Positions 12,663 to 36,469 of a stretch of 36,469 nt of DNA are shown here, piece by piece. The notes under the pieces were generated by a model. The model did not search any database, was not told where the DNA came from, and saw only the letters and a program-made list of their open reading frames with translations. The position numbers and the translations under genes are program-made. The DNA is from Deltaproteobacteria bacterium (lineage in GTDB: Bacteria > JACQOV01): NCBI GenBank assembly GCA_016202395.1, contig JACQOV010000010.1, positions 1-36,469 of the forward strand, written 5' to 3'. How positions within the stretch are numbered: the first letter of the stretch is position 1; each line of letters opens with the position of its first letter.

Positions 12663-13433
12663 TTAGCTCCTCTTCTTTGGACTCATCGCATCCCCCACCG
12701 GGTCGGTCTCGTCTTGGATGAATCTCTTGAGGTTATGAAGCTCCTGATAAACCCTCGCCATCTGCGGAGCCACATGCTCCCCCCACAGCGCCGTGACCCA
12801 GTTCAATAACTCCTCTTTGTCCTTCTCTTGAACCTCCCCCTTCTTTTTTTTCTCACTGTAAGCTTTAAGCTTCTCCTCCAATAACTGAAAATAAGTGTAC
12901 ACCGCGGTAAAAGGATTGTTCACATTATGCCCTATCTCGTTAACGACGCGGTAGCGGTGTTCTAACCGATCCAGCGCCATCGCCCTCTCCTGAGCCATCT
13001 TGAGATCGAGAACCGCTTTGCGCAACTCCTCATTCTGTCGCTCCAAGGTCTGCTTCTGTGCCTGATCCGCGATCAACATCTGAAGAATGATCACCACCTC
13101 CTCCTCTTTCCCACTCAAGGGCTTGCGAAGGTATTGATGGATCTTCCCCTCATTAATGGCTCGAAGCAACAAATCCTCATCCTGATAGGCCGTGAGCATC
13201 ATCCGTGGAACGTTTGGGGCCACCTTCCGACACTCCTTCAAAAACTCGATCCCGCTCATCGAATCCATCTTCTCATCGGCAATCACCACCTGAATCGGCT
13301 CCTTTTTAAGAAACCCCAGCCCCTCCTCCCCACTCTGGACCGTGAGCACCCTAAAATGCTTCTCAAATTGACGCCGAAACAGATAAAGCTGATCCTTCTC
13401 ATCATCCACATATAATATCGTCGGTTTCTCCAT
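12663..13433 (-). CDS. Receiver + coiled coil + HisKA-like (DHp) protein with no HATPase domain
   Basis: Canonical REC (YVDDE, IADEKM, LTAY, RKP); H-box-like NEIGHNVNNP; no N/G1/F/G2 boxes; GAGGAGG RBS; paralog of 29804-30556. Confidence 0.88.
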   Translation of the reverse strand: MEKPTILYVDDEKDQLYLFRRQFEKHFRVLTVQSGEEGLGFLKKEPIQVVIADEKMDSMSGIEFLKECRKVAPNVPRMMLTAYQDEDLLLRAINEGKIHQYLRKPLSGKEEEVVIILQMLIADQAQKQTLERQNEELRKAVLDLKMAQERAMALDRLEHRYRVVNEIGHNVNNPFTAVYTYFQLLEEKLKAYSEKKKKGEVQEKDKEELLNWVTALWGEHVAPQMARVYQELHNLKRFIQDETDPVGDAMSPKKRS

Positions 13434-13451
13434 CGATCGCCTCCTCTTCTT

Positions 13452-15947
13452 TTACGATCCCTTCACTCCCCCTATGGGAAACAACAGAACCATACGGGTT
13501 CCTGTATGAATATCACTCTCAATCCCCATCTTCCCACCATGGCGCTCCATCACTTTCCTGATAAACGAAACCCCCATTCCGGTGCCCTTTCCAACGGCTT
13601 TCGTCGTGAAGTAGCCACGCATCACCTTTTCCACGTTCTCTTTAGGAATGCCGCACCCGTTATCTGCCACCTCCAGTCGGATCCATTCCCCTTCTGGGCC
13701 AATCCGCACCTCGATCCTCCCCTTCCAACCCTCCCCCCTCCCCTCGGCTTCCCTTCGAGATTGAATCGCATCACGAGAATTGATAAATAGATTCATGAGA
13801 ACCTCGTGAATCTGTCCTGGATTGCCCGGAATCCGTGGCACTCCTTCCGCACACTCGAGCTCAAAATTAATCCCAGAACGGCCGATATCATAATCCAAAA
13901 TCCGCTTCACCAACTCCACACACCCCTTCAAATCCACAGGTTCCACTCGGTCACTCATCCGAACAAACTCCTTGATCTCTTTCACCATCTGGACCGAGGT
14001 CATCAAACAATCATGCTGAAACCGCTGATCCTCCTCGATTTGCTCAAAGAGCTTGGCCAAATCTGCATGCTGAGAAATCCGAGGATCCTTTCGAAGCGTT
14101 TCAAACCCCTGTACTAAAAGCTCCGTCCCACCGGCCAAAGCCCCAATCTTATTCCCCACTTCATGCGAAAAAGAGGCCACCAACTGGCCCAGAGTCCCAA
14201 TTTTATCCAGTTGTGCGTTGATCTCAAACTGCTCTTCCCTCTGCTGAAAATGCTCCGCGTTGGCCAACGCCACTGAAACGCTCCGGGAAAGCATCTGAAG
14301 GAGCTCGACATCCTCCGCGCCATACAGCTCCCCGCTCTTCTTTCGCCCCAATAATAGAAAACCGGTGAGCTTCTCCTGAAATCGAATCGGTAACGCCAAT
14401 TCAACCCCCATCCGAATCAAATCGGGAAGCATCTTCTCCCGAACTTCCTGATACCGGGGATCATTGGCTAACTCAAAAGCCATCACCCCACTCTTCTCAT
14501 CACTCAACACTTGAACCAAAGGATGATTCGCTGAAATCTCTTGGACCCACTTGGAATTCCACACCTCTCCAGCCCAAAAAACATAGCTCCCCTCTTTCTC
14601 ACTCCATTGAAACAACGCCACCTTCTCGACCCTCATCGCCGAGTTAATCCCCTTGATGAGTTTCCGAGCAATGTGCCCCGTATCTAACAACTGGGTCAAA
14701 GATTCACCCACGGCCTGGAATGCCTCCCTATATGTCTGCTCCCGATCTAAAGAAGGCTTGTTTAAAAAGCCTTTCACAACATCAAAAAACACGGTCGTGA
14801 AAACGAGCATGCCTACAAAAATCAACGTCGGAGCATAGGCGCTTTGCATAAACGCTCCTCCTATCCCTAAAGCCCTCGCCCCAAACACAATCAGAGCCGC
14901 ATAAAAGGCCGATAATAGGTAGCTCCACAACGCGGATAGAATACTTCTCTTAAGAAAAAGACTCACCTGAAACAAGTCATGCCGCGCCACGGCCAAAGCG
15001 ATTCCAAATGGAAAAATCACCAAAGGAAGTAAATACAGATTGGGTGGAACCGGGATCTGTAGCAGCCAACAATAGACTTTTAGCAAAATAGGAATCGATA
15101 CTATCAATACGGTGGCCATCAACACCACCCGAGCCCGAAGACGCTCCACTAAAATGTAAGACTCCCGATAAGCAACCGCAGACGTGATCAGAAAGATTCC
15201 GACTGCAATCATTATTAAACCTGCATTGAGGCGGTCCATAATTAACCATGTCCATTTACTGTCATAAAGGGAGACTTCCAAGAAAGCCGCGATCAACAAA
15301 CTAAAAAGAAACGGATATTGTGAAATAGAAGGGAATCGTTGCAAGATCCTTTGTTGTGAGGGAAAGCGAAGACCCAAATGAATAATCGACGCTGGCAATA
15401 AGCTCACTATAAGAAGATAGAGTCGATAAAAACGGTGTGTCGACACCGCATCGAAACTTAAAAGGAGAAAAAAGGCCACATTAAAAGAGAATAATGACAA
15501 AGAGCGCGCTACTGCTGTTTGAGCCCCAAATCCTACGATGGCGCCATAAGCGAAATAAATACAGCTTGTAAACAACACCGTTCCCAAAAGCCAAAAAATG
15601 TCAATCCATTGTATTTTAATCGGATGTAGTTCTAGAGTACGAGACTCTTTCCCACTACTCAACGTAACTAAGAATGGAATCCCTTCGCCCTTCCCCTCAA
15701 TATGGCTATAAAAATCCTTCCGATTTCTAATATCAACTCCATCAATGGCAACTACCTTAGCCGGATAGCGAACAAACTCATCTAATCCTTTCCAACTTTG
15801 GAAACGATTGGATGAAACAACGAGATTGGGATAAATCAGGAAACCTGTGGAAGGTTTCTCCAACCATCGAATAGCATCTAAAGTGCAAATGGCCCCCAAT
15901 ATCAAAAAGCTAATGAATGCTACCCATAGTATCCACCTGTCTGACAT
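13452..15947 (-). CDS. Membrane sensor histidine kinase (PDZ-like periplasmic region, multi-TM, GAF, HisKA, HATPase)
   Basis: 831 aa; VVAIDG PDZ-like strand, roughly 9-10 hydrophobic segments, GAF (LALPIRFQEKLTGFLLLG.KKSGELY..ED.ELL), H-box SHEVGN, NLFINSRDA, DNGCGI, FTTK..GKGTGMG. Confidence 0.9.
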   Translation of the reverse strand: MSDRWILWVAFISFLILGAICTLDAIRWLEKPSTGFLIYPNLVVSSNRFQSWKGLDEFVRYPAKVVAIDGVDIRNRKDFYSHIEGKGEGIPFLVTLSSGKESRTLELHPIKIQWIDIFWLLGTVLFTSCIYFAYGAIVGFGAQTAVARSLSLFSFNVAFFLLLSFDAVSTHRFYRLYLLIVSLLPASIIHLGLRFPSQQRILQRFPSISQYPFLFSLLIAAFLEVSLYDSKWTWLIMDRLNAGLIMIAVGIFLITSAVAYRESYILVERLRARVVLMATVLIVSIPILLKVYCWLLQIPVPPNLYLLPLVIFPFGIALAVARHDLFQVSLFLKRSILSALWSYLLSAFYAALIVFGARALGIGGAFMQSAYAPTLIFVGMLVFTTVFFDVVKGFLNKPSLDREQTYREAFQAVGESLTQLLDTGHIARKLIKGINSAMRVEKVALFQWSEKEGSYVFWAGEVWNSKWVQEISANHPLVQVLSDEKSGVMAFELANDPRYQEVREKMLPDLIRMGVELALPIRFQEKLTGFLLLGRKKSGELYGAEDVELLQMLSRSVSVALANAEHFQQREEQFEINAQLDKIGTLGQLVASFSHEVGNKIGALAGGTELLVQGFETLRKDPRISQHADLAKLFEQIEEDQRFQHDCLMTSVQMVKEIKEFVRMSDRVEPVDLKGCVELVKRILDYDIGRSGINFELECAEGVPRIPGNPGQIHEVLMNLFINSRDAIQSRREAEGRGEGWKGRIEVRIGPEGEWIRLEVADNGCGIPKENVEKVMRGYFTTKAVGKGTGMGVSFIRKVMERHGGKMGIESDIHTGTRMVLLFPIGGVKGS

Positions 15948-15952
15948 GCTCC

Positions 15953-18295
15953 CTAACTTTCTTTCATTGTCAAATCAGTTTTTTCGGAAACAATTGTTTC
16001 GACTCTAGCAAGCGAAGCCATACGAATGGGTTTGATCAACATTAACAATGCCGGTAAAACGATAACGTCTCCTACTAAAGCGGCCATAACTGCAATCCCA
16101 GAAAGAAGACCGAAATTGACCATCGGAACAAAAGACGAAAAAACGAGAACCCAAAAGCCTGCTGCCAATACGAAAGAAGTATAAACAATGGGCTGTCCTA
16201 CTTTTTCCATGGTTGCTCTCAGCGCTACACCATAATCCCCTTTCTGTGTTAATTCATGACGAAAACCATGGAGAAAATGGATTGTGTCATCGACTGCCAT
16301 AGAGATGACAATAGAGGCTATCGTACATGTCCCCATGTCCAGAAAAATCCCCCACTTCCCCATGACTCCCAAAATAATAACGACTGGAAAAACATTCGCG
16401 GGTATAGCAATCAAGGCTAACCGCCAGGATCGAAGAGCAATCATCAAAACAATGAAAATCAATACAAACGCCAACGCAAAACTCTGAATCTCTGTATCAA
16501 GAACCTCCACGGTCATTTTTTGGCCCAACCACAAGTCTCCTGTCAACTGAATATTGAGCTTTGGATCAAAATTCTGAGCTAGATGCTCTTTAATCTGCTC
16601 TGACATAGCGACAAATTCTTTGGAGGGCAAAATCTTTGAACGCGCCGTCACACGCATACGCTTTCCATCTGCTGAAAGATAACTCTTTATCCCCCTCTCA
16701 CCCCCCATATCTGCCACAAATATTAGCAATCGTTCAATAGAATTCTTTTCTGTAGGAATTGTATAGAAGCTGGGATCCCCTCCATGAAGTTCTTGATTGG
16801 TCTTCTTTAAAATATCGGCAAGCGAGAAACTTTTATCAATAGATGGAAAGCTCTCAAGATATTGTTGCAGTTCTTCCATCTGGTGTAACACAGGATACTC
16901 TAAAACTTCGCTACCGTCCTTGTAACCCACAGAAAACTCTACCGCAGGCCAATCACCAATCTTTTCGGTGACTAATCGCTCATGTTGCATGACTTCGCTA
17001 TTCTCTTTTAGAAATTGCAAATGATAGGTATCGACAATAACCCTAGAAACCCATGTCCCAAATAAGAGGACAAGAAGAAGAGCCCCAAGGAGAACGGGGC
17101 GCCGATATCTATCGGCAAAGCTCCCAAGAATAACGGTCAATTCCTTAATAACAGATCCTTCTTTTTTCATATGGGAGAGAGGATCCCACTTCAAACGACT
17201 CAAAGCTAAGGGAAGAAGTGTGAAAGTTAAGAGATAAGAAACAACGACTCCAAACGCAGAATACAATCCAAACTCCTGAACCGTAGTTACGGAACTCGTA
17301 AGCAAGGAGAGAAAACCTAGAGATGTCGTTACACTCGCCCACAAACAGGGAGTCGCTACTTGAGAAACTGCTTCTAACACAATATGATGTCGATCTTCTG
17401 TTGGCCTGAACCTTTGCCGATAAGCGCTCAATAAATGCGTACTATTTAAAACGCCATAGACAAGTAACAGCGGTAAGACCACTTCTGTCAATGGACTCAA
17501 AAACTTTCCAATGGCCGCAACAAACCCAAGAGTCCATATGACGCTAATACCCGCAATCATCAGTGGGGTTCCTGGAACCCATGAATTACGGAAGATATAA
17601 AATAAAACTAAAAAGATCATGAGCAACAAGATGGGCGTGATGATTCGATTATCTCGCTCGTAGGCTTCTTCCAATGAAACCTGATATACGGGGATTCCTC
17701 CTAAAAAAACCGTGAGCCCCTCTATCTTTTCTGCGTTCTCAATAATAGAGCGAAGCTCTTGAACCAATTCCCTCTTGTAGGTAGGGCTTGATGATTTCTT
17801 GAGAAGGATTAAGACATTGGTTGCTTTACCATCCTTAGCAATCAAAAAGGTCTTGTAATAAAGTGGATCGGAAAGGACTCGCTCTCTAACGGCTCCCATA
17901 TCTGAAGATTCAAGGGTAGATAGCTCATCTTCTAAAGAACCGACAACTAAAATCTCCCCCTGGTTATAGGCAGAGTTAAAATTAGTGACACTCAAGACTT
18001 GTTCAACCTGCGGAAGTTCCTCAAACTGGTGAGTCATCCGATCCACTAATCTCAATACGCGAAGATCAAAAACATCTTCATAAAAGTAGTGAACCGATAT
18101 AAATTCGTCCGTTCCAAACTCTTTATAAAAATCGTTATAGTACTGAAGGTCAGGATCATCGGGGTGAAATGTTGCAGCAATGTCTGTATTGACTTTTAAC
18201 TCTTGAAATTGCCAACCCAAGTAAATCGTTGGAATCAAAACAATGAGGATCGTTGCTAGAGCGTGGTCCAAAACCCAACGAACAATACGAACCAT
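15953..18295 (-). CDS. MMPL/RND family transporter
   Basis: 780 aa; two repeats of TM + soluble domain + 5 TM; AVDDTIHF and TTSLGFLSL...VQEFG motifs; GGAG RBS. Confidence 0.9.
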   Translation of the reverse strand: MVRIVRWVLDHALATILIVLIPTIYLGWQFQELKVNTDIAATFHPDDPDLQYYNDFYKEFGTDEFISVHYFYEDVFDLRVLRLVDRMTHQFEELPQVEQVLSVTNFNSAYNQGEILVVGSLEDELSTLESSDMGAVRERVLSDPLYYKTFLIAKDGKATNVLILLKKSSSPTYKRELVQELRSIIENAEKIEGLTVFLGGIPVYQVSLEEAYERDNRIITPILLLMIFLVLFYIFRNSWVPGTPLMIAGISVIWTLGFVAAIGKFLSPLTEVVLPLLLVYGVLNSTHLLSAYRQRFRPTEDRHHIVLEAVSQVATPCLWASVTTSLGFLSLLTSSVTTVQEFGLYSAFGVVVSYLLTFTLLPLALSRLKWDPLSHMKKEGSVIKELTVILGSFADRYRRPVLLGALLLVLLFGTWVSRVIVDTYHLQFLKENSEVMQHERLVTEKIGDWPAVEFSVGYKDGSEVLEYPVLHQMEELQQYLESFPSIDKSFSLADILKKTNQELHGGDPSFYTIPTEKNSIERLLIFVADMGGERGIKSYLSADGKRMRVTARSKILPSKEFVAMSEQIKEHLAQNFDPKLNIQLTGDLWLGQKMTVEVLDTEIQSFALAFVLIFIVLMIALRSWRLALIAIPANVFPVVIILGVMGKWGIFLDMGTCTIASIVISMAVDDTIHFLHGFRHELTQKGDYGVALRATMEKVGQPIVYTSFVLAAGFWVLVFSSFVPMVNFGLLSGIAVMAALVGDVIVLPALLMLIKPIRMASLARVETIVSEKTDLTMKES

Positions 18296-18343
18296 TTCAT
18301 CTCCCTTTCATTGATTTACACCAGAACATGATAAAACAACAGT

Positions 18344-19812
18344 TTAAGCAACCCTTGGCAACTCCATTTCTCTTTCCTCGACGAAACGCCCCGATGCATC
18401 ATATCTACCTTCTTCGACTTGTTTTAAATAAGGGATATAGGCTTGCATTTCTTGAAGGAACGACTTCATCATAAGGCGACGAAACCACTGGTAAAAACTC
18501 ACAACTATTTGGCCCTTAAAAAGGTTTGTTAAAATACTCCTCCAGGAGTAGAAGGAACGGTAAGCATCGTAAATGCCCTGCTGAAGCTCGCTGGGCTTTA
18601 TATTTTTTGGGAAATGAGTGATGAACTGGAGATTATAATAATCCCAATTCTTCTGAAATATCCTATCAGAAGAAATGACCCTCTCGGGTCCTTCTGGAAA
18701 CTCTGTGAGTACATTCATCATCATCCAACCTGCGCCACTTTTCTGAGTCCACTCTAAGGTTTGTTTAACGGTGTCTTTCGTGTCATTATCACTTCCTAAA
18801 ACAAAACCAGCACAAACTTGAATGCCATAACGACGAATCCTCTGTATCGAGTCTTCCACTTTTTCGATCGTCTGTTTTTTATCATAATCATCGAGTGTTT
18901 TATTATCAACGGATTCCACTCCCATAAATAACCAAGTAACACCTGCTCTTTTCATTAAATCGAGCATCTCTAAATCTTCAGCGACCTCATAGCGTGCAAA
19001 CACCAATGAATGTGACTTTACACCACTTTTGATGATCTCTTTTAAAACCGCTTTCGTCCTCTCTCGATTCACCCCAAAATAACTATCAAGAATAATGAGC
19101 CAGTTAGGAAAGCCAGGAAAGAAAGACGTCTTACTTCTTAAATCCTCTGCCACGGCTTCGGGACTTCGATGACGCATCGTCTTCATCCCGATCCGCCAAC
19201 AAAATTTGCACGGATAGGGACAACCACGTGAAGTTTCCAAAAAATGCGCATGGGCTTTGGCCTGAAGAAAAAGCTTGATAGGATTTAATTGTTGATAACC
19301 ACAAACTAACGAAAGGTCGGGAATTATATCAAAATTCTTTAAAAGTTCTCTCGAAGGATTATGGTAAGGCACGCCGTTTTTAATATAAGAAATTCCTTTT
19401 ACACCCTTCAAATCACCGCCATTGTTAAGCATTGTTAACAATTCTAAAATGGTTTCCTCCCCTTCTTCTCTAACCACATAATCTACATGCTGAATAGCAT
19501 CATCGGGTAACATCGATGCATGAGGTCCACCCAAAACAACGGGAATATTTCTACGTCCTTAATCCTTTGAACCATTTCATAAACGCAATTAACACTACAA
19601 GTAACAGCCGAGAAGCCGACTAAATCTGCTTGTAATACCCTTTCCCAAGGAATAGGAGCGATCCTCTCCATAAAAACCTCTACTTCATAACCCGCTTGTT
19701 TCAAAACGGTACCTATCAATGGCAATGCATTTTCGGTCATGTAAAAGCGTTTTTCAAAATCCGGGAATCGAGGATTCGGAGAAATAAGCGCAATTTTTTG
19801 GATAGGCTTCAC
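18344..19812 (-). pseudogene. B12-binding radical SAM enzyme (class B type) with a 1-nt frameshift near 19556 (true pseudogene or sequence error)
   Basis: The N-terminal frame from GTG 19812 (KIALISP...LPLIGTVLKQAGYEV...DLVGFS) joins the C-terminal frame (NIPVVLGGPHAS, VVREEGEET, ETSRGCPYPCKFC, MGVES) only if one base is restored at ATT AAG GA^CGT. Confidence 0.85.
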
Positions 19813-19855
19813 AGCAGAGCCCCCCCTATAGTTTGACCGGATCGCGTTCTGCCTG

Positions 19856-19884
19856 TTTGTACCACAGAACCTACTAAAACTCAA
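19856..19884 (-). promoter_or_regulatory. Possible sigma-70 promoter for the radical SAM cassette
   Basis: TTGAGT-17 nt-TACAAA with an extended -10 TG; weak match. Confidence 0.3.
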
Positions 19885-19975: not shown

Positions 19976-20004
19976 TTGACTTGGCAGGGCCCCAATTCTA
20001 AAAT
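19976..20004 (+). promoter_or_regulatory. Sigma-70 promoter giving a probably leaderless transcript
   Basis: TTGACT-17 nt-TAAAAT; ATG 20011 begins at the 7th nt after the -10 box; no SD. Confidence 0.7.
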
Positions 20005-20010
20005 GAGATC

Positions 20011-23283: not shown

Positions 23284-24371
23284 GCATTTCAATCCGACAG
23301 TTGGCAGCGGAACATTTTGTTGTCGGTTTCAAAGAAACCTCCTTTACCCTCTCCCTCCAAAAATGGATTCAAGAAAATCGTTGGGGAGGCTACATCCTTT
23401 TCAGCGAAAATTATGAGTCCCCTCAACAGCTTTATCAACTCTGTCAGGGGATCAAGAAGGAGTATCCCGCTCCCCCTTTTCTCTCGGTCGATCAAGAGGG
23501 GGGACCGGTGCTGCGGTTTAGAGAGAAGTTTACAAAACTGCCTTCGGCGCGCGACATTGGAAAGGCCTACGGAAGATCAAAAAATGTGAGTTGCGCCTAT
23601 CAATGTGGAACCATTGCGGCAAAAGAGCTCGCAACGGTTGGCATCAATTGGGATCTAGCCCCTGTTTTAGATGCCTCCAACAACCCTGAAAACACGGTGA
23701 TCGGGGGTCGCGCATTTAGTGATAAACCTTACGTGGTAAGTGTTCTAGGGCTTGCTTTTATCGCCGGGCTGCAAGACAACGGTGTCATGGCTTGCGGCAA
23801 GCATTTTCCGGGACATGGATGCACCACCGAGGATTCCCATCACGTTCTACCCAGAGTGGAATACTCCTCCCAACGGCTCGCAACGATGGAGATGGAACCG
23901 TTCCTTCGAGCGATCGAAAATGGAATTTTCTCTCTCATGACGGCTCACGTTCTCTATCCCAATTTGGATTCTGAAAAACCGGCCTCCCTTTCCAAAAAAA
24001 TTCAAACTCAATTGATTCGAAAACAGAAACGATTCGAGGGGATTCTCGTGACCGACGATCTAGCGATGAAAGCGATCACACTGCACCAATCGATTCCAGA
24101 AGCAACCCTTGACGCCATCCTAGCGGGAACAGATATGGTATTGCTTCGTGGAGATTCCGATGCTCAGGCTTCGGCTCTCGCAGCGGTGACGCAGGAGGCA
24201 GAAAGAAGTCCAGCATTCCGATCCAAACTTGAGAATTCCAGCCATCGTCTTCAACGCATCCAAAAAGAATATCTTTCGAGACGAAATGAATATGAAGGGA
24301 ACCTCTCGTTGATTGGCTGTCCAGACCATCAAAACTATATCGTTGAGTTGTTGGAGGGTTATGAAACCTAA
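23280..24371 (+). CDS. nagZ: Beta-N-acetylhexosaminidase (GH3)
   Basis: VDQEGG, NagZ signature KHFPGHG....DSH, MTAHV, nucleophile TDDLAM. Confidence 0.92.
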   Translation: MSISIRQLAAEHFVVGFKETSFTLSLQKWIQENRWGGYILFSENYESPQQLYQLCQGIKKEYPAPPFLSVDQEGGPVLRFREKFTKLPSARDIGKAYGRSKNVSCAYQCGTIAAKELATVGINWDLAPVLDASNNPENTVIGGRAFSDKPYVVSVLGLAFIAGLQDNGVMACGKHFPGHGCTTEDSHHVLPRVEYSSQRLATMEMEPFLRAIENGIFSLMTAHVLYPNLDSEKPASLSKKIQTQLIRKQKRFEGILVTDDLAMKAITLHQSIPEATLDAILAGTDMVLLRGDSDAQASALAAVTQEAERSPAFRSKLENSSHRLQRIQKEYLSRRNEYEGNLSLIGCPDHQNYIVELLEGYET

Positions 24372-27770: not shown

Positions 27771-27907
27771 GTCATTCCCGCGGAAGCGGGAATCCAGAAC
27801 GTCATCCCCCTGAAAAGGGGGATCCAGTAATTTTATCATGTCCAATAGAGGAGGGGATCTCGAAGGGTTCAAAAGGGAGGCTGGATCCCCGCTTTCGCGG
27901 GGATGAC
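27771..27907. repeat. Cluster of three REP-like palindromes
   Basis: Units at 27771-27797 and 27801-27827 (forward) and 27881-27907 (inverted); same family as 2403-2485. Confidence 0.9.
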
Positions 27908-27925
27908 GGTGGACGAAGGGATTAA

Positions 27926-28993
27926 ATGTTATCTTCTATAAAAAATCTCTCTCAACCGGTGTTGTTCTGGTTCAAAAAACAATGGAATGCTGTCGAGAAC
28001 CTTTCGATTGAAAAGCTGGCGGGGGATGCGTCGAATCGGAGCTATTATCGGATTCGGTCTTCCAATAACCGATCGGTTATTTGGATGAAGCTGAACTCGA
28101 CCGATCCAGGGATTCAAAGCGAGGAGATTGTGGCTGCCAGCCAAAAACAAACAGAGCTCCCTTTCATTAATATTCACCGCCATCTCAAAAACTGCGGGAT
28201 TCGCGTTCCCGAAATCCTCCTGTACGATCCGGGTTCTGGATCTCTTTTGCTCCAAGATTTAGGAGACGTTTTGCTGGCCCATCGGGTCTACAAGGCCTCG
28301 GAGGCCACTCAAAGAGAGCTCTATCGCCAAGCCATTGATCAACTCGTTCAGATCCAAATCAAGGCTTCTCAACCTCCCAAAGTGGGACAGTGCTACGCTT
28401 TTAATCTTCTCTTTGACGAAAAGCTATTTCTCTGGGAGTTTCATCACTTTCTAGAGTATCTGATTGAAAAGGGAAGAGGGATCTCCGTCTCCAACGGAGA
28501 CCGCTCCATCCTTGAAGAGGGGTTTGTCGCGATCTCGAAACGTCTAGGAAGCGAGCCTCGCTCTTTTGTTCATCGAGATTACCACAGTCGAAACCTGCTG
28601 TTAGAGAACGATCGCCTTTGGGTGATCGATTTTCAGGACGCGCTTTTGGGCCCTTACGCCTATGACCTCGCTTCCCTGTTGAGAGATTCTTACGTAGAAA
28701 TCTCTCAAGAACTCGTTCAAGAGTTGGTGGCCTATTATCTTGAAAAGTGGGTCCAAGAAGGGGGCCCTCCGCGGGAAATCTCCGATTTTAGTGAGACCTT
28801 TCACCTCGCCGTATTTCAAAGAAATCTCAAAGCGGCAGGCCGATTCCATTACATCGATATCGTCAAAAAGAATCCAAATTATCTTAAATCCGTTCCACAG
28901 GCATTGGCCAACGCGCGTGAAAGTTTAAAGGAGATAGAAGGTTTGGACCGGTTTCGTAAAATTCTAACCAAATGGGCGCCGGAGCTTGCATGA
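27926..28993 (+). CDS. amgK: Anomeric MurNAc/GlcNAc kinase AmgK-like (APH fold)
   Basis: LAGDASNRSYYR, LQDLGD, HRDYHSRNL, IDFQDAL.GP..YDLASLLRD, QRNLKA.G.F; coupled to a nucleotidyltransferase. Confidence 0.85.
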   Translation: MLSSIKNLSQPVLFWFKKQWNAVENLSIEKLAGDASNRSYYRIRSSNNRSVIWMKLNSTDPGIQSEEIVAASQKQTELPFINIHRHLKNCGIRVPEILLYDPGSGSLLLQDLGDVLLAHRVYKASEATQRELYRQAIDQLVQIQIKASQPPKVGQCYAFNLLFDEKLFLWEFHHFLEYLIEKGRGISVSNGDRSILEEGFVAISKRLGSEPRSFVHRDYHSRNLLLENDRLWVIDFQDALLGPYAYDLASLLRDSYVEISQELVQELVAYYLEKWVQEGGPPREISDFSETFHLAVFQRNLKAAGRFHYIDIVKKNPNYLKSVPQALANARESLKEIEGLDRFRKILTKWAPELA

Positions 28994-29754
28994 TGAAAGC
29001 CATGATTCTCGCCGCAGGGCTCGGAACGCGACTGCAACCTCACACACATCATACTCCGAAGCCCTTGCTCCAAATTCACGGAGAACCGATCCTCTATTAC
29101 ACCCTGCGATGGCTAAAACATTATGGAGTTCAAGAGGTGTGGGTTAATCTTCACCACTTAGGGGAACAGATCGAAAAAATTCTGGGAGAGGGATCTCGCT
29201 TTGGTTTGACGATCCGCTACTCTAAAGAGAACTCACTGCTAGGGACTGCGGGAGGGGTTCGGCATGCCGTGGAGAGGTTCAAGAATCAACGACTTCTGGT
29301 TGTCAACAGCGACTTTGTCTCAACCATCAACCTGAAAGCTTTAATGGAATACCACCATAAAAAAGGGGGAATGGCCACACTCGTTTTGAGAAAGAATCCC
29401 GATCCCTCCCTTTACGGAAAGATTTCGATCGATCGACAGGGACGCATCCGAGATCTTCTGGGCCGTCTCCAACCTCCCTTCAAAGATTTAAAAGAGCTCA
29501 TGTTCACGGGGATTCAGATTTTGGAGCCGGAACTGATCCAAGAAATCCCCTCTGGAAATTACTCCCTCACCGATCTTTATCTGAAGGCCATTGAAAAAGA
29601 TAAGCCGCTCTATGGGCGCCGGACCGAGGAATGGTGGGTCGACCTGGGAACTTTAGAACAATTTGACAAGGCTCCCCAGCAAATTAAGCGGGAACAGCTC
29701 CCCTTCTATCTAAAGGGCGCCTCTAAAAACTATGTTCGTGACGAAAAATCATGA
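28990..29754 (+). CDS. murU: MurNAc-1-phosphate uridylyltransferase MurU-like nucleotidyltransferase
   Basis: KAMILAAGLGTRL.P.T..TPKPLL, NLHHLGEQI, LGTAGG, VNSD, WVDLGT; ATGA overlap with amgK. Confidence 0.8.
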   Translation: MMKAMILAAGLGTRLQPHTHHTPKPLLQIHGEPILYYTLRWLKHYGVQEVWVNLHHLGEQIEKILGEGSRFGLTIRYSKENSLLGTAGGVRHAVERFKNQRLLVVNSDFVSTINLKALMEYHHKKGGMATLVLRKNPDPSLYGKISIDRQGRIRDLLGRLQPPFKDLKELMFTGIQILEPELIQEIPSGNYSLTDLYLKAIEKDKPLYGRRTEEWWVDLGTLEQFDKAPQQIKREQLPFYLKGASKNYVRDEKS

Positions 29755-29803: not shown

Positions 29804-30556
29804 TCATCTTTTTTTAAGAGGCAACCCTGCGTCCCCTACAGGGTCGGTCTCATCTTGGATAAATCGACTCAGATTCTTAAGCTCCTCACGCAACCGCTCC
29901 ATCTCCGGCGCTGCGATCCCGATCATCTTGATCGCTTGCTCGAACATCTCTCGCTTCTCAGCGTCACTGAGCTTCCCACTCTGATACTGCGTCGCCATCT
30001 CCCCCAACATCTGATAACACGTATACACCGGCGTCATCGGATTCCGAAGGTTGTGTCCTAACTCATTCACGACTCTGTGACGGGATTCTAATCGGGCAAT
30101 GGCAACATCCTTCTCCTTCGATAACTTGACCTGATCTACCAAATCCCTCAACTCTTTGTTCTGCCTCTGTATCACTTCCTCCTTCAAATAATTCTGGTAA
30201 CACAGGTTGAGAAGGCTTAAGACCTCCGATTCTTTCCCATCGAGGGGCTTGCGCACATAACCTTGCACTTTCCCTTCATTGACCGCTTGAATCACTAAGG
30301 CCTCTCCTTCCTGGGCCGTGAGCATGATCCGGGGAACGTGAGGCGAAATCCTCTGTGCCTCTTTTAAAAACTCGATCCCATTCATCCCTTGCATCTCCTG
30401 ATCCGCTACCACCACATGAATGGCGTTCTTCTCAAGAACCTCTACCCCCTTCGGTCCAGAGTCCGCGGGGATCACCTTAAAAAACTTCCCCAGCTTCTGC
30501 TCAAATCGCTCCAGCTGCATCCGATCATCATCCACATAAAGCACGGTCGCATTCAT
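29804..30556 (-). CDS. Receiver + coiled coil + HisKA-like (DHp) protein with no HATPase domain (paralog 2)
   Basis: Canonical REC (YVDDD, VADQEM, LTAQ, RKP); H-box-like NELGHNLRNP; ATG 30556 overlaps the upstream stop (ATGA); GGAGG RBS. Confidence 0.88.
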   Translation of the reverse strand: MNATVLYVDDDRMQLERFEQKLGKFFKVIPADSGPKGVEVLEKNAIHVVVADQEMQGMNGIEFLKEAQRISPHVPRIMLTAQEGEALVIQAVNEGKVQGYVRKPLDGKESEVLSLLNLCYQNYLKEEVIQRQNKELRDLVDQVKLSKEKDVAIARLESRHRVVNELGHNLRNPMTPVYTCYQMLGEMATQYQSGKLSDAEKREMFEQAIKMIGIAAPEMERLREELKNLSRFIQDETDPVGDAGLPLKKR

Positions 30557-31857
30557 CGCGGGCCTCCTTCGGAAAGGGGGGCTTCCACTGGGAGCCAAAC
30601 GGTAAACTCTGTCCAAGACCCCAGCTCACTCTCCACCGAAATGGTCCCCCCATGGGATTCTACCACCTGCTTCACAATCGCCATCCCCAGGCCCATTCCC
30701 TCCCCCTCTTTCTTGGTGGTGTAAAAAGGATCGAAGACTCGCTGCCTCACCTCCTCACTCATGCCAGACCCATTGTCTCGAATCTTCACCTCGATCCCAA
30801 CTCTCTTCTCTCTCTCTTGAGACTGAGCCTGAATCCCAATCTCTCCTCTCCCCCCTCGACACCTCTCACAATTCAAAACAGCCGCTCCGGAGTTCCCCAA
30901 AAGATTCGACCAAATCCTGACAATCTCCCCCCCTCGAGCCCGAATCTTCGGAATTAAATCATAGACCCGCTTCACCTCAATCCGCCCTCTCCAACGAGTC
31001 GCATACAACTTGAGAATCTTATCAATCCCCGAAACCACATCCACCTCCTCCACCTTCCCCACGCTCCTCCCATACGCATTTAACCCCTCCACCATGTTCC
31101 CCATCAATTCTACAGCCACTTGGATATCCTGTTCCACGAATCCCTTTAACTCCTCATAAATCCCCTTCCCCTTCTCCTGAACAAAGGGGCCCAGCTTCTC
31201 GATTCGATCTCTCAAGAGATCTCTAAAAGTCTGAAAGGAATCATAGGGACCCTTTAAATCATGGGCGACCTGGGTGGACATCTTCCCAATAAGCCCAAAT
31301 TTTTGCTCCTCAAATAATTGCCTCGTCCTCTCCTCCACCCGCTTCTCTAAATGGTGCGAATACTCTTCCAGCTTCGCCCGGGCTTGTCCCAATGCCTCAT
31401 TCTTCTGGGTTAACTCATCGTTCTGATGACTGATTTTCTCATAGGCTTGTTCCAACTGCCGATTCTTCTTTTTTAATTCCATACGTAGATCATATACTTC
31501 CAACACCTGATTCAAATAATTGATGAACAATTTTTCTTGACCCACCAGTGGCTTTTGAAAGTAACCCCATACATGGGCTTGATTAATCGCCTCCGTCATC
31601 AAAGAAACATTCTTATACGCCGTCAGCATAATCCGTATCGTCTCAGGATAAAGAACCTGCACTTGCTTGAGAAATTCAATTCCGTTGATCGGATCCATCT
31701 TGTAATCGGCTACTACAATAGGAATCTCCCTTTCCCGAAGATATTTTAAGGCCTCCTCCACCGTCTGAGCGGTAATCACCTCATATCGACCTTCTAAAAG
31801 CAGCCTAAAACTCTCTAATGCCGACGCATCATCATCTAAAAAAAGAATAGATCTCAT
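30553..31857 (-). CDS. Cytoplasmic hybrid histidine kinase (REC - coiled coil - HisKA - HATPase)
   Basis: REC (FLDDD, VADYKM, LTAY, QKP), H-box AHDLKGP, NLLGNS, DNGSGM, FDPFYTTK, GMGLG. Confidence 0.92.
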   Translation of the reverse strand: MRSILFLDDDASALESFRLLLEGRYEVITAQTVEEALKYLREREIPIVVADYKMDPINGIEFLKQVQVLYPETIRIMLTAYKNVSLMTEAINQAHVWGYFQKPLVGQEKLFINYLNQVLEVYDLRMELKKKNRQLEQAYEKISHQNDELTQKNEALGQARAKLEEYSHHLEKRVEERTRQLFEEQKFGLIGKMSTQVAHDLKGPYDSFQTFRDLLRDRIEKLGPFVQEKGKGIYEELKGFVEQDIQVAVELMGNMVEGLNAYGRSVGKVEEVDVVSGIDKILKLYATRWRGRIEVKRVYDLIPKIRARGGEIVRIWSNLLGNSGAAVLNCERCRGGRGEIGIQAQSQEREKRVGIEVKIRDNGSGMSEEVRQRVFDPFYTTKKEGEGMGLGMAIVKQVVESHGGTISVESELGSWTEFTVWLPVEAPLSEGGPR

Positions 31858-31880
31858 GGGCCCCTCCTGGTATTATCTAC

Positions 31881-34800
31881 CTATAGAACAACTTCGTTCT
31901 CCTCCTTTTTATCATTTTCGTCAGAAACTTCAAGGTGAAGTGGTAAAATCACTTTAAACTCCGACCCTTTTTGAACTTCACTTTCAACCTCAATCTTCCC
32001 TTGGTGTCGCTCTACAATGCGATAAGTGATACTCAATCCCAATCCAATACCTTGTCCAGGAGGTTTGGTAGTAAAAAAAGGATTGAACAGCTGGCTCAAA
32101 TTTTCCTTAGGAATTCCACAACCTGTATCTTTGATAGAAACAGAAAACAACTTTTCTCCTCGCTCGGTACGAATCCATATATCTCCTTCTTTATTCATCG
32201 CAGAAATTGCGTTAGTGAGAAGGTTCATCCAAATTTGGTTGGGTTCGCCTCCCCTGGCCTGAAGCCATCCATCCGCACAATATTCCTTATGGATCCGTAT
32301 GCGCCCCTTCAATTGATGCTCCAGCAGCCTCAAAGTGGCATCTAACCCTTCATGTACATCATAATCCACAATCGCAGTCATACCCGAATAGGCAAACTTC
32401 CCTAAACTCTCAGTTACCTCCGCAGCTCTGATCACACCCTCTCTCGCCAAATCTAATATCTTTAAATCCTCCGCTTTTTCTTTGGAAGGCAAATTGCTCG
32501 ATTCAAGTCGATCTCGCAATGCCATGACACTAAGGCCAATCGTGTTCAAAGGATTATTCACTTCATGCGCCAAACCCGCCGAAAGCTGGCCAAGAGCAGC
32601 CATTTTTTCCTGCTGAATGAGCATCTGCGTTTGCTCTTCCACTTTCTCCTCCAGATTCTTAGCGTAATCCTTGAGTTTTACTTGAGCTTGTTTTAATTCT
32701 CCATGAGTTTGCACTAGTTCTTTTGCCTGTTTTTCCACGTCCTGTTTGGCACTACCTAAGGCTCGATAGGCAGAAGCTAATTCCAATGAACGTTTCTTAA
32801 ATTGCGTTCCCAAAAATCCAGCCCCATACCCCAGAAACACCATCGATCCTCCCATTAACCAAAAATGAAGGGCGCCAATTTGAACTCCACTAAAATGAAC
32901 AGATCCCATATATCCTAATAAGGACCACACTCCTAATAAGATCCCACCCCAAACATCCAGAATTAATCCCGCATAAACCACCACGATTGAATAAATTAAT
33001 AGGAGTGACGGAAAAGCCGCAACATTGAATAAATCAATCAACACACTAATCATCACTACATCTACCACCATGGCCAATACAGTCATTGCAGTGGCCAGCC
33101 TATCGTACCGTGCTAGAAAAAAATAAACTCCGCTCAATGAGAACTGAACAAGCGCTGTAACTAAAATCGGCTTTAATGGAACCGAGATAACCTCTAATAC
33201 CGAAAACGAGACCACAAAAATAACCAGGATTAAATTTAGAGCAACACGCAGGTAAATATGAGGCGCTTGGGAACCACGGGTCAGCCAATTTGAAAGAGGC
33301 TCTATCTCCCATTCTTTTTCAAAGACCCGAATCTGGTCTTTTTTTTTCCGCTGCAATGGACGAAAGAGGATCAGAGAGGCTGGAAGAACAAAAAGATCAC
33401 CCAAAAGAGCGGCGATGACTGCAAAGCTCGATAATAATCCAAATCGCGCCACGGGAAGATAACCTGAGAAACCCAACACCGAAAAACCAACCGTGAGTAC
33501 CAAGGCCGTAAATAGGATCGGCCTCCCCACGACTTGCAAAGTATTACGAATCGCATCTTCGTAACTCACTCCTTCTTCTATTTCTCTGCGCCAACGGAAG
33601 ACATAATGAACCGTATCATCAATAACGATCCCAAAAAGAATGCTCGCAATCATGGCTGTTCCCACATCCAGCGCAATCCCCAGCCATCCCATGAGCCCCA
33701 AAGTAATAACGATGGGAAACAGGTTTGGTATTAAACTTAAAATGCCCAATGAAAAGGACCGAAGAACAAACAACATAACAACACAGATTAAAACGAAGGC
33801 CACGGTAAACGACTTTATCTGGCCAGTTAACAATAAGTGCACCAGGTGAATGTCTATAACAGACCCTCCAGTCATCTGAACTGTCATAGGGGTCTTCAAA
33901 AGAGAGGGAACCTCTCCAGAGATTTTCTTCAGAACCGTATCGGTCTCTCCGGAAGGCATAAAACGCAATGAGGTCCAAATGTTGGCCTTCGAAAGATCAT
34001 TATTGACTACTAATCGACTATAGGGAGATCCTTCCGTTAAGGCTAGCAATCGACCTGGATTACTGTCAGGCAGGCGATACTCAGAAATATCACCTCCTTG
34101 AAAGGCTTGATGAGTGCCTTTAATAGCATCCACAATCGAGAACGTATTTCCAACCTCTGGAAGTTCCTCCAAGTATTCTTCTACACGATCGATATCTTTT
34201 AATACTTCTGCATCCATCAACCCTTCAGGCTTTCCTGTGTCTAAAACCAGCCATGTTGGAACCCAACCCCCTTGATGAAGATCCACGGTATGCAACGCCT
34301 GCACCCACTCCGATTCTTCTGGAAAAAGTCGATCAGCATGCGTATCCGCCTCCAATTTCGTAATTCCCCACATAAAAAAGCCCATCACAATAATTGCCAA
34401 ACTAAAAATCGCCATGGGAAACCGAATGGGCCACTCCGCTAAACGTCCCATGAGTCTCTCACTCAACCATCCCTCCATACGAAAAGAAGAGACCTCCTGG
34501 GACTCAGATTCGCCTCCTAGGGCATAAACCCATAAAATAAAAGTGATCAGAAGTAACACAGCCATGCCAAAGGCCGCTACCACTCCAAACTGTTGGATTG
34601 CAGCCAGATCGGCAGCGCCCAGAGAAACAATTCCGAGAAAGGCCGTTAAAGTATTCAAAATACATGGCGGACCTACCTCTCGAAGGGTGATGGCAATTGC
34701 TTCTTTTTTGGGAGTTGTTTTAATCAACATGCGATAATGGGAAATGAGATGTAGAATATCCATCGCGCCATAAATTAAAAAAATAACAAGAAGGGCTTGA

Positions 34801-35660
34801 GAAAAAAGGGTCACTTTATAAGAAACTAAACTAGAGAATCCCATCGACCAGATAGTCCCTAAAGTAACTACTAAAAGGGAAACCACAACAATCCTCCAAC
34901 TTCGAAAAAGAAGATAGATCGTGACGACGAGAAGGAACAACAACAAGGGGATCACTGTCAAAACATCTTTTTTAAAAACTTCATGAAGGAGCAATTCGAT
35001 GGCAATGGTGCTGCTGGTGTAACATCGGGTGGTCCCGAAGCAACTGCCTCTAAGAACCTGTCTAAAATCCCGAGCCAATTGAAGACGTTCTTTCACCTGA
35101 AGAGATTTTGGATTGATGTAGGCCCAAACAATAGATAGCTGCTCATCCTCAGAGATGAGAAGCGTTCTTTTAAATAGCTGGCTTGACAGAACCTTACTGC
35201 GAATAGAAGCCACCTCTTTAGGAGACAACCCGGAAGTCCTTCCCTCTAGCGAAAACAGTTCTATCTCTTCTCCTGAAGCAACGGGGAAACCTGGATGGGT
35301 CAAGCTAATAACAGCTTCAACGGCAGGAAATTCTCTCACCTTCTGTGTAATGGAATCAATCGTACTTAAAACCTCTCGATCAAAAATATGGGGGGCTTCC
35401 ACTCCTAGGGCAATATGATCTAGCCCGCCAAATTCTCCTAAGTACTCTTCTTCATAATATCGCAATACCGAATCATCCGGATTGAACATGGCCTGCTGAC
35501 GAAGATCTATTTTGAGTTGCAAAAGAAAATAACCAAAAAAGAGGGTTGGGACGGCGAGAATAACGATCGTGAGCCATGGCCGCATCCAAATATACTCAAA
35601 AGCCTTCCGTAGCTGTAGGAGGATCTTTTGCTTCATTAAAGAGCCGAAATTAGGCGCCAT
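31881..35660 (-). CDS. MMPL/RND transporter - histidine kinase fusion protein
   Basis: 1259-aa single ORF: ~770-aa two-repeat MMPL (GAMDILH, GIVIDDTVHY), about five further TM helices, coiled coil, AHEVNNPL, NLLTNA, DTGCGI, FNPFFTTK..GQGIGLGL. Alternative start ATG 35636. Confidence 0.9.
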   Translation of the reverse strand: MAPNFGSLMKQKILLQLRKAFEYIWMRPWLTIVILAVPTLFFGYFLLQLKIDLRQQAMFNPDDSVLRYYEEEYLGEFGGLDHIALGVEAPHIFDREVLSTIDSITQKVREFPAVEAVISLTHPGFPVASGEEIELFSLEGRTSGLSPKEVASIRSKVLSSQLFKRTLLISEDEQLSIVWAYINPKSLQVKERLQLARDFRQVLRGSCFGTTRCYTSSTIAIELLLHEVFKKDVLTVIPLLLFLLVVTIYLLFRSWRIVVVSLLVVTLGTIWSMGFSSLVSYKVTLFSQALLVIFLIYGAMDILHLISHYRMLIKTTPKKEAIAITLREVGPPCILNTLTAFLGIVSLGAADLAAIQQFGVVAAFGMAVLLLITFILWVYALGGESESQEVSSFRMEGWLSERLMGRLAEWPIRFPMAIFSLAIIVMGFFMWGITKLEADTHADRLFPEESEWVQALHTVDLHQGGWVPTWLVLDTGKPEGLMDAEVLKDIDRVEEYLEELPEVGNTFSIVDAIKGTHQAFQGGDISEYRLPDSNPGRLLALTEGSPYSRLVVNNDLSKANIWTSLRFMPSGETDTVLKKISGEVPSLLKTPMTVQMTGGSVIDIHLVHLLLTGQIKSFTVAFVLICVVMLFVLRSFSLGILSLIPNLFPIVITLGLMGWLGIALDVGTAMIASILFGIVIDDTVHYVFRWRREIEEGVSYEDAIRNTLQVVGRPILFTALVLTVGFSVLGFSGYLPVARFGLLSSFAVIAALLGDLFVLPASLILFRPLQRKKKDQIRVFEKEWEIEPLSNWLTRGSQAPHIYLRVALNLILVIFVVSFSVLEVISVPLKPILVTALVQFSLSGVYFFLARYDRLATAMTVLAMVVDVVMISVLIDLFNVAAFPSLLLIYSIVVVYAGLILDVWGGILLGVWSLLGYMGSVHFSGVQIGALHFWLMGGSMVFLGYGAGFLGTQFKKRSLELASAYRALGSAKQDVEKQAKELVQTHGELKQAQVKLKDYAKNLEEKVEEQTQMLIQQEKMAALGQLSAGLAHEVNNPLNTIGLSVMALRDRLESSNLPSKEKAEDLKILDLAREGVIRAAEVTESLGKFAYSGMTAIVDYDVHEGLDATLRLLEHQLKGRIRIHKEYCADGWLQARGGEPNQIWMNLLTNAISAMNKEGDIWIRTERGEKLFSVSIKDTGCGIPKENLSQLFNPFFTTKPPGQGIGLGLSITYRIVERHQGKIEVESEVQKGSEFKVILPLHLEVSDENDKKEENEVVL

Positions 35661-35698
35661 AACAAAATAGCCCCAATAACAGTATCTTAATTAGTTTC

Positions 35699-36469
35699 TC
35701 AAGATGCCATTGGAAAAATCATTGCATGATCCTGCTGCATCGGACGATGGAAACGATCCGATTCTTCTACCTGGCCCACAGGCAGAAGTTTCTCCTCCAT
35801 TAAATGGTCTGATGCATCATACATATCTTCTTCAATCTGTTTTAATTGAGGAATGTAGGCCTCCATTTCGCGCAGATGTGGCTTCATAACGATGCTCCGA
35901 TATAATTGGAAAAAGGCCGCTCCGACTCTTCCTTTGAGAAGATTTGTTAAGATATTTCGCCATGAGAAAAATAAACGATAACCATCAATAACTTTCCGCT
36001 CCAGTTCACTCGGTCTCATGTATTTTGGATAATGAGTTACAAAGTGGGTTGTATAATAATCCCAATTTTTTTGAAATACTCGGTGGGAGGGAATCAATTC
36101 TTCCTCTTGCCCATTATGGAAATCTGTCAGTATATTCAGCATAACCCATGTAGCGCCGGATTCCTGAGCAAACTGAATATTTTTTCTCCAAGTGTCCTTT
36201 GTGTCATCATCGCTTCCTAAAACAAAACTGGCACAAACATGCATACCATGACGCCGAATCATATCTATGGATTTTCTCACTTTCTCGATGGTTTGCCTCT
36301 TGTCAAAATGATCCAAGGTGTCATTGCTAATCGACTCTACTCCCATAAATATCCACAGGACTCCTGCTTTCTTCATGAGTCGCAACATTTCTATATCGTC
36401 TGCGATTTCACAACGGGCGAATAAGAAATAACCCGCTTTTACTCCGCTTTTGATTATTTCTCTTAATAC
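35699..36469 (-). CDS. Radical SAM enzyme, C-terminal part (5' end outside the window), paralog of 18344-19812
   Basis: The frame is open to the window edge (VLREIIKSGVK...); it aligns by eye with copy 1 at MGVES, QTIEKV, FVLGSD.DTKDT, FQKNWDYY, PSEL and EM.AYIP.LKQ.EE. Confidence 0.88.
   Translation of the reverse strand, partial: VLREIIKSGVKAGYFLFARCEIADDIEMLRLMKKAGVLWIFMGVESISNDTLDHFDKRQTIEKVRKSIDMIRRHGMHVCASFVLGSDDDTKDTWRKNIQFAQESGATWVMLNILTDFHNGQEEELIPSHRVFQKNWDYYTTHFVTHYPKYMRPSELERKVIDGYRLFFSWRNILTNLLKGRVGAAFFQLYRSIVMKPHLREMEAYIPQLKQIEEDMYDASDHLMEEKLLPVGQVEESDRFHRPMQQDHAMIFPMAS

Follow-up and report, generated by a model that had tools for sequence, protein, structure and literature searches.

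The contig JACQOV010000010.1 of the Deltaproteobacteria bacterium assembly GCA_016202395.1 (G000:C90; 36,469 nucleotides, analysed over its whole length and called the window in the following) carries at one end a set of four genes which we refer to as cassette 2. These are the 3' part of a gene for a radical S-adenosylmethionine (SAM) enzyme, a gene that joins a transporter of the MMPL/RND type to a histidine kinase within one polypeptide, a gene for a soluble receiver-plus-kinase protein (REC-kinase) and a gene for a receiver protein with a DHp-like hairpin (REC-DHp). The four genes lie close together and are coupled in translation. Direct reading of the sequence gave 38 nt between the radical SAM gene and the fusion, 23 nt containing an AGGAGG between the fusion and the REC-kinase gene, and an ATGA stop/start overlap between the REC-kinase and REC-DHp genes with GAAGGAGG 8 nt upstream. 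A related set of genes, cassette 1, shares strand and order with cassette 2. An earlier model-generated reading of the sequence (the original prediction) had described two such cassettes about 10 kb apart with this spacing, and our analysis bears this out. Coordinates are collected in Table 1.

Table 1. Features of cassettes 2 and 1 in the window.
Feature	Position	Strand	Remark
Cassette 2: radical SAM enzyme, 3' part (256 aa)	35699..36469	-	Open reading frame (ORF) open at contig end; Pfam Radical_SAM 40.1 bits (cutoff 29.5)
Cassette 2: MMPL-kinase fusion (1259 aa)	31881..35660	-	ORF
Fusion: MMPL/RND transporter part, aa 1-770	33351..35660	-	12 predicted transmembrane (TM) helices, two periplasmic loops; Pfam and hydropathy
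Fusion: joint, cytoplasmic linker, aa 771-798	33267..33350	-	Joins the transporter to the kinase's own membrane domain
Fusion: kinase membrane sensor, aa 799-955	32796..33266	-	About six TM helices, no large loop; hydropathy
Fusion: coiled coil, DHp, ATPase domain	31881..32795	-	Pfam; H-box SAGLAHEVNNPL with H1032; N, G1, F and G2 boxes present
Cassette 2: REC-kinase (434 aa)	30553..31857	-	ORF
Cassette 2: REC-DHp ORF	29804..30616	-	Likelier start ATG at 30556, giving 250 aa (29804..30556)
Cassette 1	12663..19884	-	Same order and strand as cassette 2, about 9.9 kb away
Cassette 1: radical SAM enzyme	18344-19884	-	ORFs 19483-19884 and 18344-19534
Cassette 1: MMPL transporter	15953-18295	-	Paralog
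Cassette 1: polytopic GAF kinase	13452-15947	-	Between the MMPL and REC-DHp genes
Cassette 1: REC-DHp	12663-13433	-	Paralog

The fusion belongs to the RND superfamily, with two stretches matching Pfam MMPL (PF03176; 80.8 bits, cutoff 20.5) and 12 hydrophobic segments. Pfam also recognized Sterol-sensing (49.1 bits) and HATPase_c (90 bits) on the same polypeptide, the Patched SSD profile matched as well, and HisKA reached 25.5 bits, just under its cutoff of 26.9. The residues H1032, N1146, G1178, F1192 and G1204 identify the C-terminal part as a HisKA-type histidine kinase. The transporter scored below the cutoffs of HAE3 (TIGR00921; 196 vs 351.9) and HpnN (TIGR03480; 88.6 vs 751.85), and its nearest solved chains were HpnN 5khn (1.4e-11) and MmpL3 7nvh (3.7e-09). 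Asp301 in TM4 and Asp681-Asp682 in TM10 are retained both in the fusion and in an unfused sister transporter on contig C101 of the same genome. The TM10 block DDT(V/I)H is common to all 16 of the 16 homologues in which the second half could be aligned, and it aligns with the membrane core of MmpL3 and HpnN. By homology, these aspartates would form the proton relay, consistent with an active proton-driven RND pump.

Between transporter and DHp, the fusion carries a six-helix membrane domain. It matched no Pfam or NCBIfam family; 6TM_PilS (PF25323) gave no Pfam match on the fusion at E values up to 0.01, and a STAC domain was likewise absent by Pfam. A protein-language Atlas pointed toward 6TM_PilS-type (10 of 30 hits) and MASE-type domains, which we treat as a lead only. 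The domain is homologous to the N-terminus of three stand-alone kinases (P0372, which is the kinase of C101, P0373 and P0489), and all three begin with it.

We asked whether the fusion, or the cassette, might be an assembly artefact. The source is a groundwater metagenome bin of 1.90 Mb in 108 contigs (89% complete), many of which end within paralogs of the radical SAM, MMPL and REC-DHp genes, and cassette 1 most likely contains a single-base error. Exact end overlaps that would join paralog-bearing contigs were not found, and none of the public Logan contigs extends beyond base 36469. However, four groundwater runs belonging to a single study yielded Logan contigs without indels within cassette 2, and record 7 of run X1 (33056-34595) spans the fusion joint with 0 differences; these runs possibly contain the source sample and therefore do not count as independent support. 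Independent support came from the metagenomic protein P0371 (517 aa), which is colinear with aa 720-1249 of the fusion at 51% identity, from the last MMPL helices across the linker, and its colinearity across the joint marks it as a 5'-truncated fused orthologue. The fusion is thus genuine, and we consider an artefact extremely improbable.

P0371 is the one protein outside this genome in which the fusion joint was found, and among the matches listed the best full-length homologue showed 29% identity over 58% of the length, so none is close. Other fusions of MMPL to signalling domains are present among 120 matches listed. In P0004, P0005 and P0007 (about 1000 aa), MMPL is fused directly to DHp-ATPase, and in P0006, P0031, P0038, P0069 and P0075 it is followed by a C-terminal cyclic nucleotide (cNMP)-binding domain. 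Both kinds are without the extra six helices and together form a clade of their own (support 99). As the direct MMPL-kinase fusions fall into this separate clade, MMPL must have been fused to a kinase at least two times. Behind one of these MMPL fusions lies a REC-STAS regulator, and a metagenome scan with the P0005-type protein recovered one 2.1 kb contig. The direct MMPL-kinase and MMPL-cNMP-binding proteins also have a (V/I)TxWDL linker in common. No literature on RND- or MMPL-kinase fusions turned up in the searches made, nor in the available part of the review PMC8277102.

These relatives bear on the idea that the MMPL part does not transport at all and is instead a lipid-binding sensor domain of the kinase, comparable to the sterol-sensing domains of SCAP and Patched. 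The idea gains from the matches to the Sterol-sensing and Patched SSD profiles and from the fact that 8 of the 120 listed matches join MMPL to DHp-ATPase or cNMP-binding domains, one of them ahead of REC-STAS. However, Asp301 and Asp681-Asp682 are kept as in a proton-driven pump, in the unfused sister too, and since the kinase possesses a six-helix sensor of its own, MMPL need not be the sole input. We therefore regard a purely sensory MMPL part as unlikely.

The two downstream proteins carry the residues for a further relay. REC-kinase is soluble and matched Pfam REC and HATPase_c (84.1 bits). Its receiver is intact (D8-D10, D51, T79, K102) and is followed by a coiled coil and by H199, N318, G361, F375 and G387, giving a kinase with a complete ATPase domain. 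It has the N-terminal receiver plus kinase layout of Leptospira LvrB (PDB 8vc9), and its similarity to the LvrB-type hybrid regulators of NCBIfam was under the cutoff. REC-DHp matched REC, with HisKA under the Pfam cutoff and no HATPase_c. Its receiver residues (D9, D10, D52, T80, K103) are complete and invariant in all eight family members, and the same holds for the H168-x3-N172-P173 motif, which lies in a DHp hairpin behind a long coiled coil, and for the acidic tail DETDPVGD. An AlphaFold 2 model (mean pLDDT 80.9) comprised the receiver, a helix 109-171 kinked at the Asn-Pro and two more helices, from which we predict that the C-terminal part is a DHp-like hairpin. Foldseek with this model returned mostly receiver domains, and 8vc9_C over 249 columns.

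Directly after its conserved histidine, REC-DHp has N, H or R, where E or D would be usual. Together with the lack of an ATPase domain, this makes autokinase activity unlikely, and the sequence suggests that REC-DHp likely serves in phosphotransfer or as a phosphatase. Comparable are DHp proteins that are atypical or lack the catalytic ATPase domain, such as RedE and Spo0B, kinase-like proteins that have no autokinase activity and act by relaying phosphate or taking it off. REC-kinase and REC-DHp align at 31% through receiver, coiled coil and H-box, and by this alignment REC-DHp looks like a REC-kinase after loss of the ATPase domain. A search of 5.8 billion clusters yielded eight full-length REC-DHp proteins, three from this genome and five from outside (35-70%), beyond which matches were limited to the receiver. 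By these comparisons, REC-DHp is a small and conserved family of its own. All residues of the His-Asp-His-Asp-His chain that the original prediction had proposed are present, namely H1032 of the fusion, D51 and H199 of REC-kinase and D52 and H168 of REC-DHp.

Of the radical SAM gene at the head of the cassette, the 5' half is cut off at the contig end, and the remaining fragment matches the C-terminal part of Radical_SAM. Full-length paralogs on contigs C36 and C74 (522-523 aa) combine a B12-binding domain with the motif CPYPCKFC, and by these paralogs the enzyme of cassette 2 is putatively of the B12-binding (class B) type. The best NCBIfam matches (BchE, PhpK and HpnJ) were all far under cutoff: the cassette 1 enzyme scored 123.6 for HpnJ (TIGR03471; cutoff 577.6) and 123.2 for BchE (TIGR02026; cutoff 481.35), and the cassette 2 fragment 37.9 and 58.5, respectively. 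Close homologues (59-66%) were found on a few short metagenome contigs. A scan of the genome collection with a two-row radical SAM alignment returned a single relative at 25%, and a metagenome scan with the radical SAM alignment gave no match. One of four distant homologues adjoins genes for FabF-like, carboxyltransferase and acyltransferase proteins. Neither the 38-nt nor the 23-nt gap fits a small ORF, so a precursor of a ribosomally synthesized and post-translationally modified peptide (RiPP) was rejected for these positions.

Two sequences from contigs C98 and C71, both 5' fragments of radical SAM genes ending at a contig end, are candidates for the absent part; identity patterns weakly favour C98. 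Genes for peptidoglycan recycling flank cassette 2 in the window (23280-24371 and 27926-29754), encoding a NagZ-like GH3 protein, an AmgK-like kinase and a MurU-like nucleotidyltransferase. On C98, an AnmK gene (7563-8729) is found ahead of the radical SAM fragment. This peptidoglycan-recycling context is a weak hint that C98 holds the absent upstream flank of cassette 2.

We next counted related genes in the genome, using tblastn, ORF maps and Pfam. Pieces of radical SAM genes occur at six places (cassettes 1 and 2, C36, C74 and the 5' fragments ending C98 and C71), so that no fewer than five such genes exist. Close MMPL genes number seven (cassettes 1 and 2, C36, C74, a tandem pair on C41, and C101); C102 has a further MMPL fragment, from the C-terminal end, and C4 a distant copy. 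REC-DHp genes number three (cassettes 1 and 2, C91). Contig C74 carries a radical SAM gene, an MMPL gene and, at its end, the start of a cassette-1-type kinase, and C91 a kinase end followed by REC-DHp, so that the two could together form a third cassette of the cassette 1 type. These counts do not agree with the two channels of the original prediction. Its shared REC-DHp tail also had to be given up, as each cassette has a REC-DHp of its own with about 46% identity.

At four loci (cassettes 1 and 2, C36, C74), the radical SAM gene adjoins a type-A MMPL copy (type A being defined by the MMPL tree below) or the fusion with short gaps, and in five of five paralog flanks it is the first gene. The genes upstream encode a peptide ABC transporter, RHS/AbiE, ORFs without known family, AbiE, and AnmK. 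Since none of the five flanks holds another biosynthetic gene upstream, a common substrate is the most likely target of the radical SAM enzyme, and further biosynthetic genes beyond the window edge, as previously envisaged, are unlikely.

The closest paralogs of the fused parts are found on C101 (MMPL 49%, kinase 35%). There, an MMPL gene and a kinase gene, unfused, with 41 nt between them and differing in frame, follow one gene that resembles serine palmitoyltransferase (452 bits, cutoff 640) and one that is GNAT-like. The kinase has the same six-helix sensor as the fusion, and sphingolipid-type genes take the place of the radical SAM gene, which is absent from C101; neither REC-kinase nor REC-DHp was found ahead of the contig end. 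A CqsA-type autoinducer synthase was rejected for the C101 enzyme, as its 205 bits lie below the 452 bits for serine palmitoyltransferase. That genes which are separate neighbours on C101 are fused in cassette 2, and that the fusion is kept in a diverged relative, suggests that transporter and kinase act as a unit. The position of the sister pair behind serine-palmitoyltransferase-like and GNAT-like genes points to a lipid context.

Comparison of the cassettes by tblastn gave 57% identity over 234 aa for the radical SAM enzymes (2e-91), 46% over 264 aa for REC-DHp (4e-72) and 30% over 748 aa for MMPL (6e-90), in agreement with the earlier claim that the former two are clearly paralogous and the MMPL domains much more diverged. 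In the MMPL tree, the seven copies of this genome form one clade (SH-aLRT 91) that splits into type B (cassette 2 and C101, support 100) and type A (the rest, support 100). Path lengths from cassette 2 were 0.95 to C101 and 2.15-2.23 to type A. In the radical SAM tree, in which the cassette 2 enzyme is represented by its C-terminal half and which was computed under a different model from the MMPL tree, the copies of this genome group with four metagenomic proteins in one clade (100/100) that has little internal structure. Here, cassette 2 is 0.54 from C36 and 0.69 from cassette 1, which does not exceed the spacing among the partners of type A. The transporter-kinase of cassette 2 thus appears to have diverged about 3x more than its enzyme predicts. 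The simplest reading of these trees is that cassette 2 is a mosaic in which a radical SAM gene of type A was combined with a transporter-kinase pair of type B.

The tree topology by itself is no proof, as the approximately unbiased (AU) test did not reject a radical SAM tree with cassette 2 outside the other copies (p 0.263). The view of cassette 2 as a plain diverged copy of one signalling system is not supported: its MMPL and kinase belong to the separate C101 subfamily, whereas the distance of its radical SAM enzyme from the others is no greater than that among them. Independent assembly of the parts, which had been named as grounds for abandoning that view, is thus partly favoured by the subfamilies, while co-divergence is not rejected by the AU test. 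The C74 enzyme pairs with the metagenomic protein P0124 (99/98), which indicates that the duplications are older than the split from related organisms.

Transporters fused to histidine kinases have been described. CbrA is called a rare 'transceptor', in which an SLC5 transporter domain is fused to a histidine kinase, in the accessible part of PMC13022988 (see also PMC7096432). CbrA and CrbS resemble the cassette 2 fusion in that a single polypeptide contains an entire membrane transporter as well as a histidine kinase. They differ in that their transporter is of the SLC5 type rather than of the RND/MMPL superfamily, and in the cassette 2 fusion the kinase retains six membrane helices of its own, placed ahead of the DHp, and no STAC was found by Pfam. 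The lipid exporters MmpL and HpnN share MMPL family and SSD-like membrane core with the cassette 2 transporter, but unlike it none of them is fused to a kinase. In mycobacteria, several MmpL paralogs each stand beside an enzyme gene, as they do in this genome.

In the order of its part types, cassette 2 parallels the Ralstonia phc operon. As far as described in the available part of PMC8578825, this operon encodes the SAM-dependent synthase PhcB, the membrane kinase PhcS, the soluble receiver-plus-kinase PhcR and the receiver protein PhcQ, and PhcR and PhcQ are without DNA-binding domain. Compared by domain type, the order is the same in both. Cassette 2 differs by its B12-type radical SAM enzyme, by the transporter that is inserted and fused, and by a DHp with conserved histidine on the last protein.

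Taking these findings together, we propose that cassette 2 may be an operon that makes, exports and senses a hydrophobic, lipid-like product and feeds a Phc-like relay; we put the probability of this reading at roughly 0.4. The radical SAM enzyme, of the B12 type, would modify a common lipidic substrate, and the MMPL/RND part would move the product out of the inner membrane. The covalently joined kinase would read the load or conformation of the transporter inside the membrane, in the manner of a transporter-receptor, and its all-membrane sensor, as judged by hydropathy, supports this. The phosphoryl group might pass from H1032 to D51 of REC-kinase, gating its own H199, and then to REC-DHp (D52, H168), which, as it has no ATPase domain, would be limited to handing phosphate on to a regulator encoded outside the cassette or taking it off that regulator. 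Product, transport, each phosphotransfer step and output are what these assignments would predict, and the genome would keep several such modules, probably one per product.

Several observations weigh against this proposal. No family names the radical SAM enzyme, as HpnJ and BchE stay far under cutoff and the Atlas placed it in generic B12/radical SAM clusters. In four other genomes, radical SAM homologues with 32-34% identity lack a neighbouring gene for MMPL, kinase or REC-DHp. The HisKA domain of REC-DHp was detected in five of eight family members and was under the cutoff each time, and cassette 2 contains no DNA-binding regulator. For a 2 Mb genome, at least five lipid modules, each with a sensor, would be many. 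Finally, the gene order fits a quorum-sensing operon equally well.

The last point leads to the main rival account, in which the whole cassette is a Phc-like circuit for signalling between cells. The radical SAM enzyme would convert a common lipid precursor into a hydrophobic signal able to diffuse, MMPL would export it, the kinase would sense its accumulation, and REC-kinase and REC-only proteins would relay to a regulator elsewhere, with the cassettes acting as parallel signal channels. Beyond the order of part types shared with the phc operon (PMC8578825, available part), this account draws on a single enzyme gene heading a self-contained cassette (five of five flanks), on an all-membrane sensor such as hydrophobic signals would need and on several old paralog sets that couple enzyme with transporter. 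The C101 enzyme also belongs to a superfamily that includes alpha-hydroxyketone autoinducer synthases (205 bits). However, PhcB is an ordinary methyltransferase and not a radical SAM enzyme (PMC8578825, available part), and the parallel with the other Phc proteins is drawn from the order of domain types. As a serine palmitoyltransferase, the C101 enzyme scores 452 bits, more than twice its score as an autoinducer synthase. We know of no B12-radical-SAM autoinducer synthase, nor is an RND pump driven by proton motive force known as a requirement for such signals. We consider a circuit of this kind possible but rather doubtful.

Another explanation would be an efflux pump for hydrophobic compounds with a substrate-sensing kinase that responds to envelope stress, and a radical SAM gene that is an unrelated neighbour. 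RND pumps are commonly under two-component control (PMC8277102, available part), and the radical SAM enzyme matches no named family. Against this, short gaps separate the radical SAM gene from an adjacent MMPL at four loci, and co-divergence is seen among the paralogs. ORFs and Pfam moreover revealed no membrane-fusion or outer-membrane partner of a pump in cassette 2. An envelope stress system therefore seems improbable to us.

We also speculated on a wider version of the make-export-sense proposal. In this version, an RND lipid transporter would serve as the ligand-reading input of a kinase, an 'RND transceptor' akin to SCAP and Patched, and this deep-branching lineage would have at least five parallel channels for different radical-SAM-modified lipids, with a lineage-specific REC-DHp family connecting them in a single network that signals on the envelope or between cells. 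We offer it with considerable doubt. If the make-export-sense proposal is true, lipid pumps would feed two-component signalling directly, an RND/MMPL version of the rare transporter-kinase fusions, of which those studied use SLC5 carriers. Such a system would be a simple bacterial model for sterol-sensing-type membrane domains that couple lipid load to a signal. The REC-DHp family could show how ATPase-less, kinase-like proteins shape phosphorelays, and the link of B12 radical SAM enzymes to a transporter and a sensor narrows the search for the product. The host genome is the sole representative of its phylum in the GTDB-based set (60 of its 60 nearest genomes match at domain level only).

With regard to outputs, a candidate by sequence is an NtrC-type sigma-54 response regulator on C88 (1521-5504), which adjoins a full-length paralog (860 aa, 31%) of the polytopic GAF kinase of cassette 1; the core of this C88 kinase is the best match in the genome (43%) to the core of the fusion kinase. 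On C22 (19170-22333), genes for three soluble signalling proteins stand in tandem: a REC protein in which the H-box histidine of a DHp-like segment is replaced by Gln (AQEVNNP), followed by two REC-histidine kinases. In the window, a sigma-54 activator whose receiver is without its first half (10731-11945) directly follows tRNA-Leu (10395-10477), and a 142-aa VpsR-like receiver without acidic pair (12230-12658) lies tail to tail with the REC-DHp gene of cassette 1.

The radical SAM gene of cassette 1 appeared frameshifted at 19558 (133 aa + 396 aa). Public contigs of the runs X1, X2 and X3 carry an extra T behind 19558 (X4 does not cover the site), which restores an open frame of 518 aa, so that a single-base error of the bin, not a pseudogene, is most likely.

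Within cassette 2, a scan for promoters and terminators found fewer sites than in shuffled sequence. Upstream of four of the five radical SAM paralogs, a conserved block GTTTAAAAAT..TTGAGT-17 nt-TGnTACAAA resembles an extended -10 sigma-70 promoter (window 19885-20010; C98 8900-9030; C36 15000-15130; C71 20850-20940). A sigma-54 promoter was rejected there, since the GG/GC spacing is off and not conserved. The 140-nt leaders of cassette 1 and C98 are about 89% identical, above the level of the coding parts, and REP-like palindromes lie just upstream. AbiEii/AbiEi pairs are located directly upstream of two radical SAM-MMPL modules (C36 12118-14962, C71 19484-20841), the former together with an RHS-core protein; the modules on C36 and C71 occupy variable, defence-rich regions.

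Between an amidohydrolase gene and the amgK gene of the window (27771-27910), we noted two GC-rich palindromic units of the TCATTCCCGCGGAAGCGGGAATCC type. A tRNA was ruled out at this position, and a CRISPR array was rejected because direct repeats are absent and the units are palindromic. Summed contig depth over the units was about 2400 in X1, where the adjacent sequence had a depth of about 10, and 206-1961 in the other runs; numerous contigs link the two units with other intervening sequence. The region is a REP-like repeat that is widespread in these samples.

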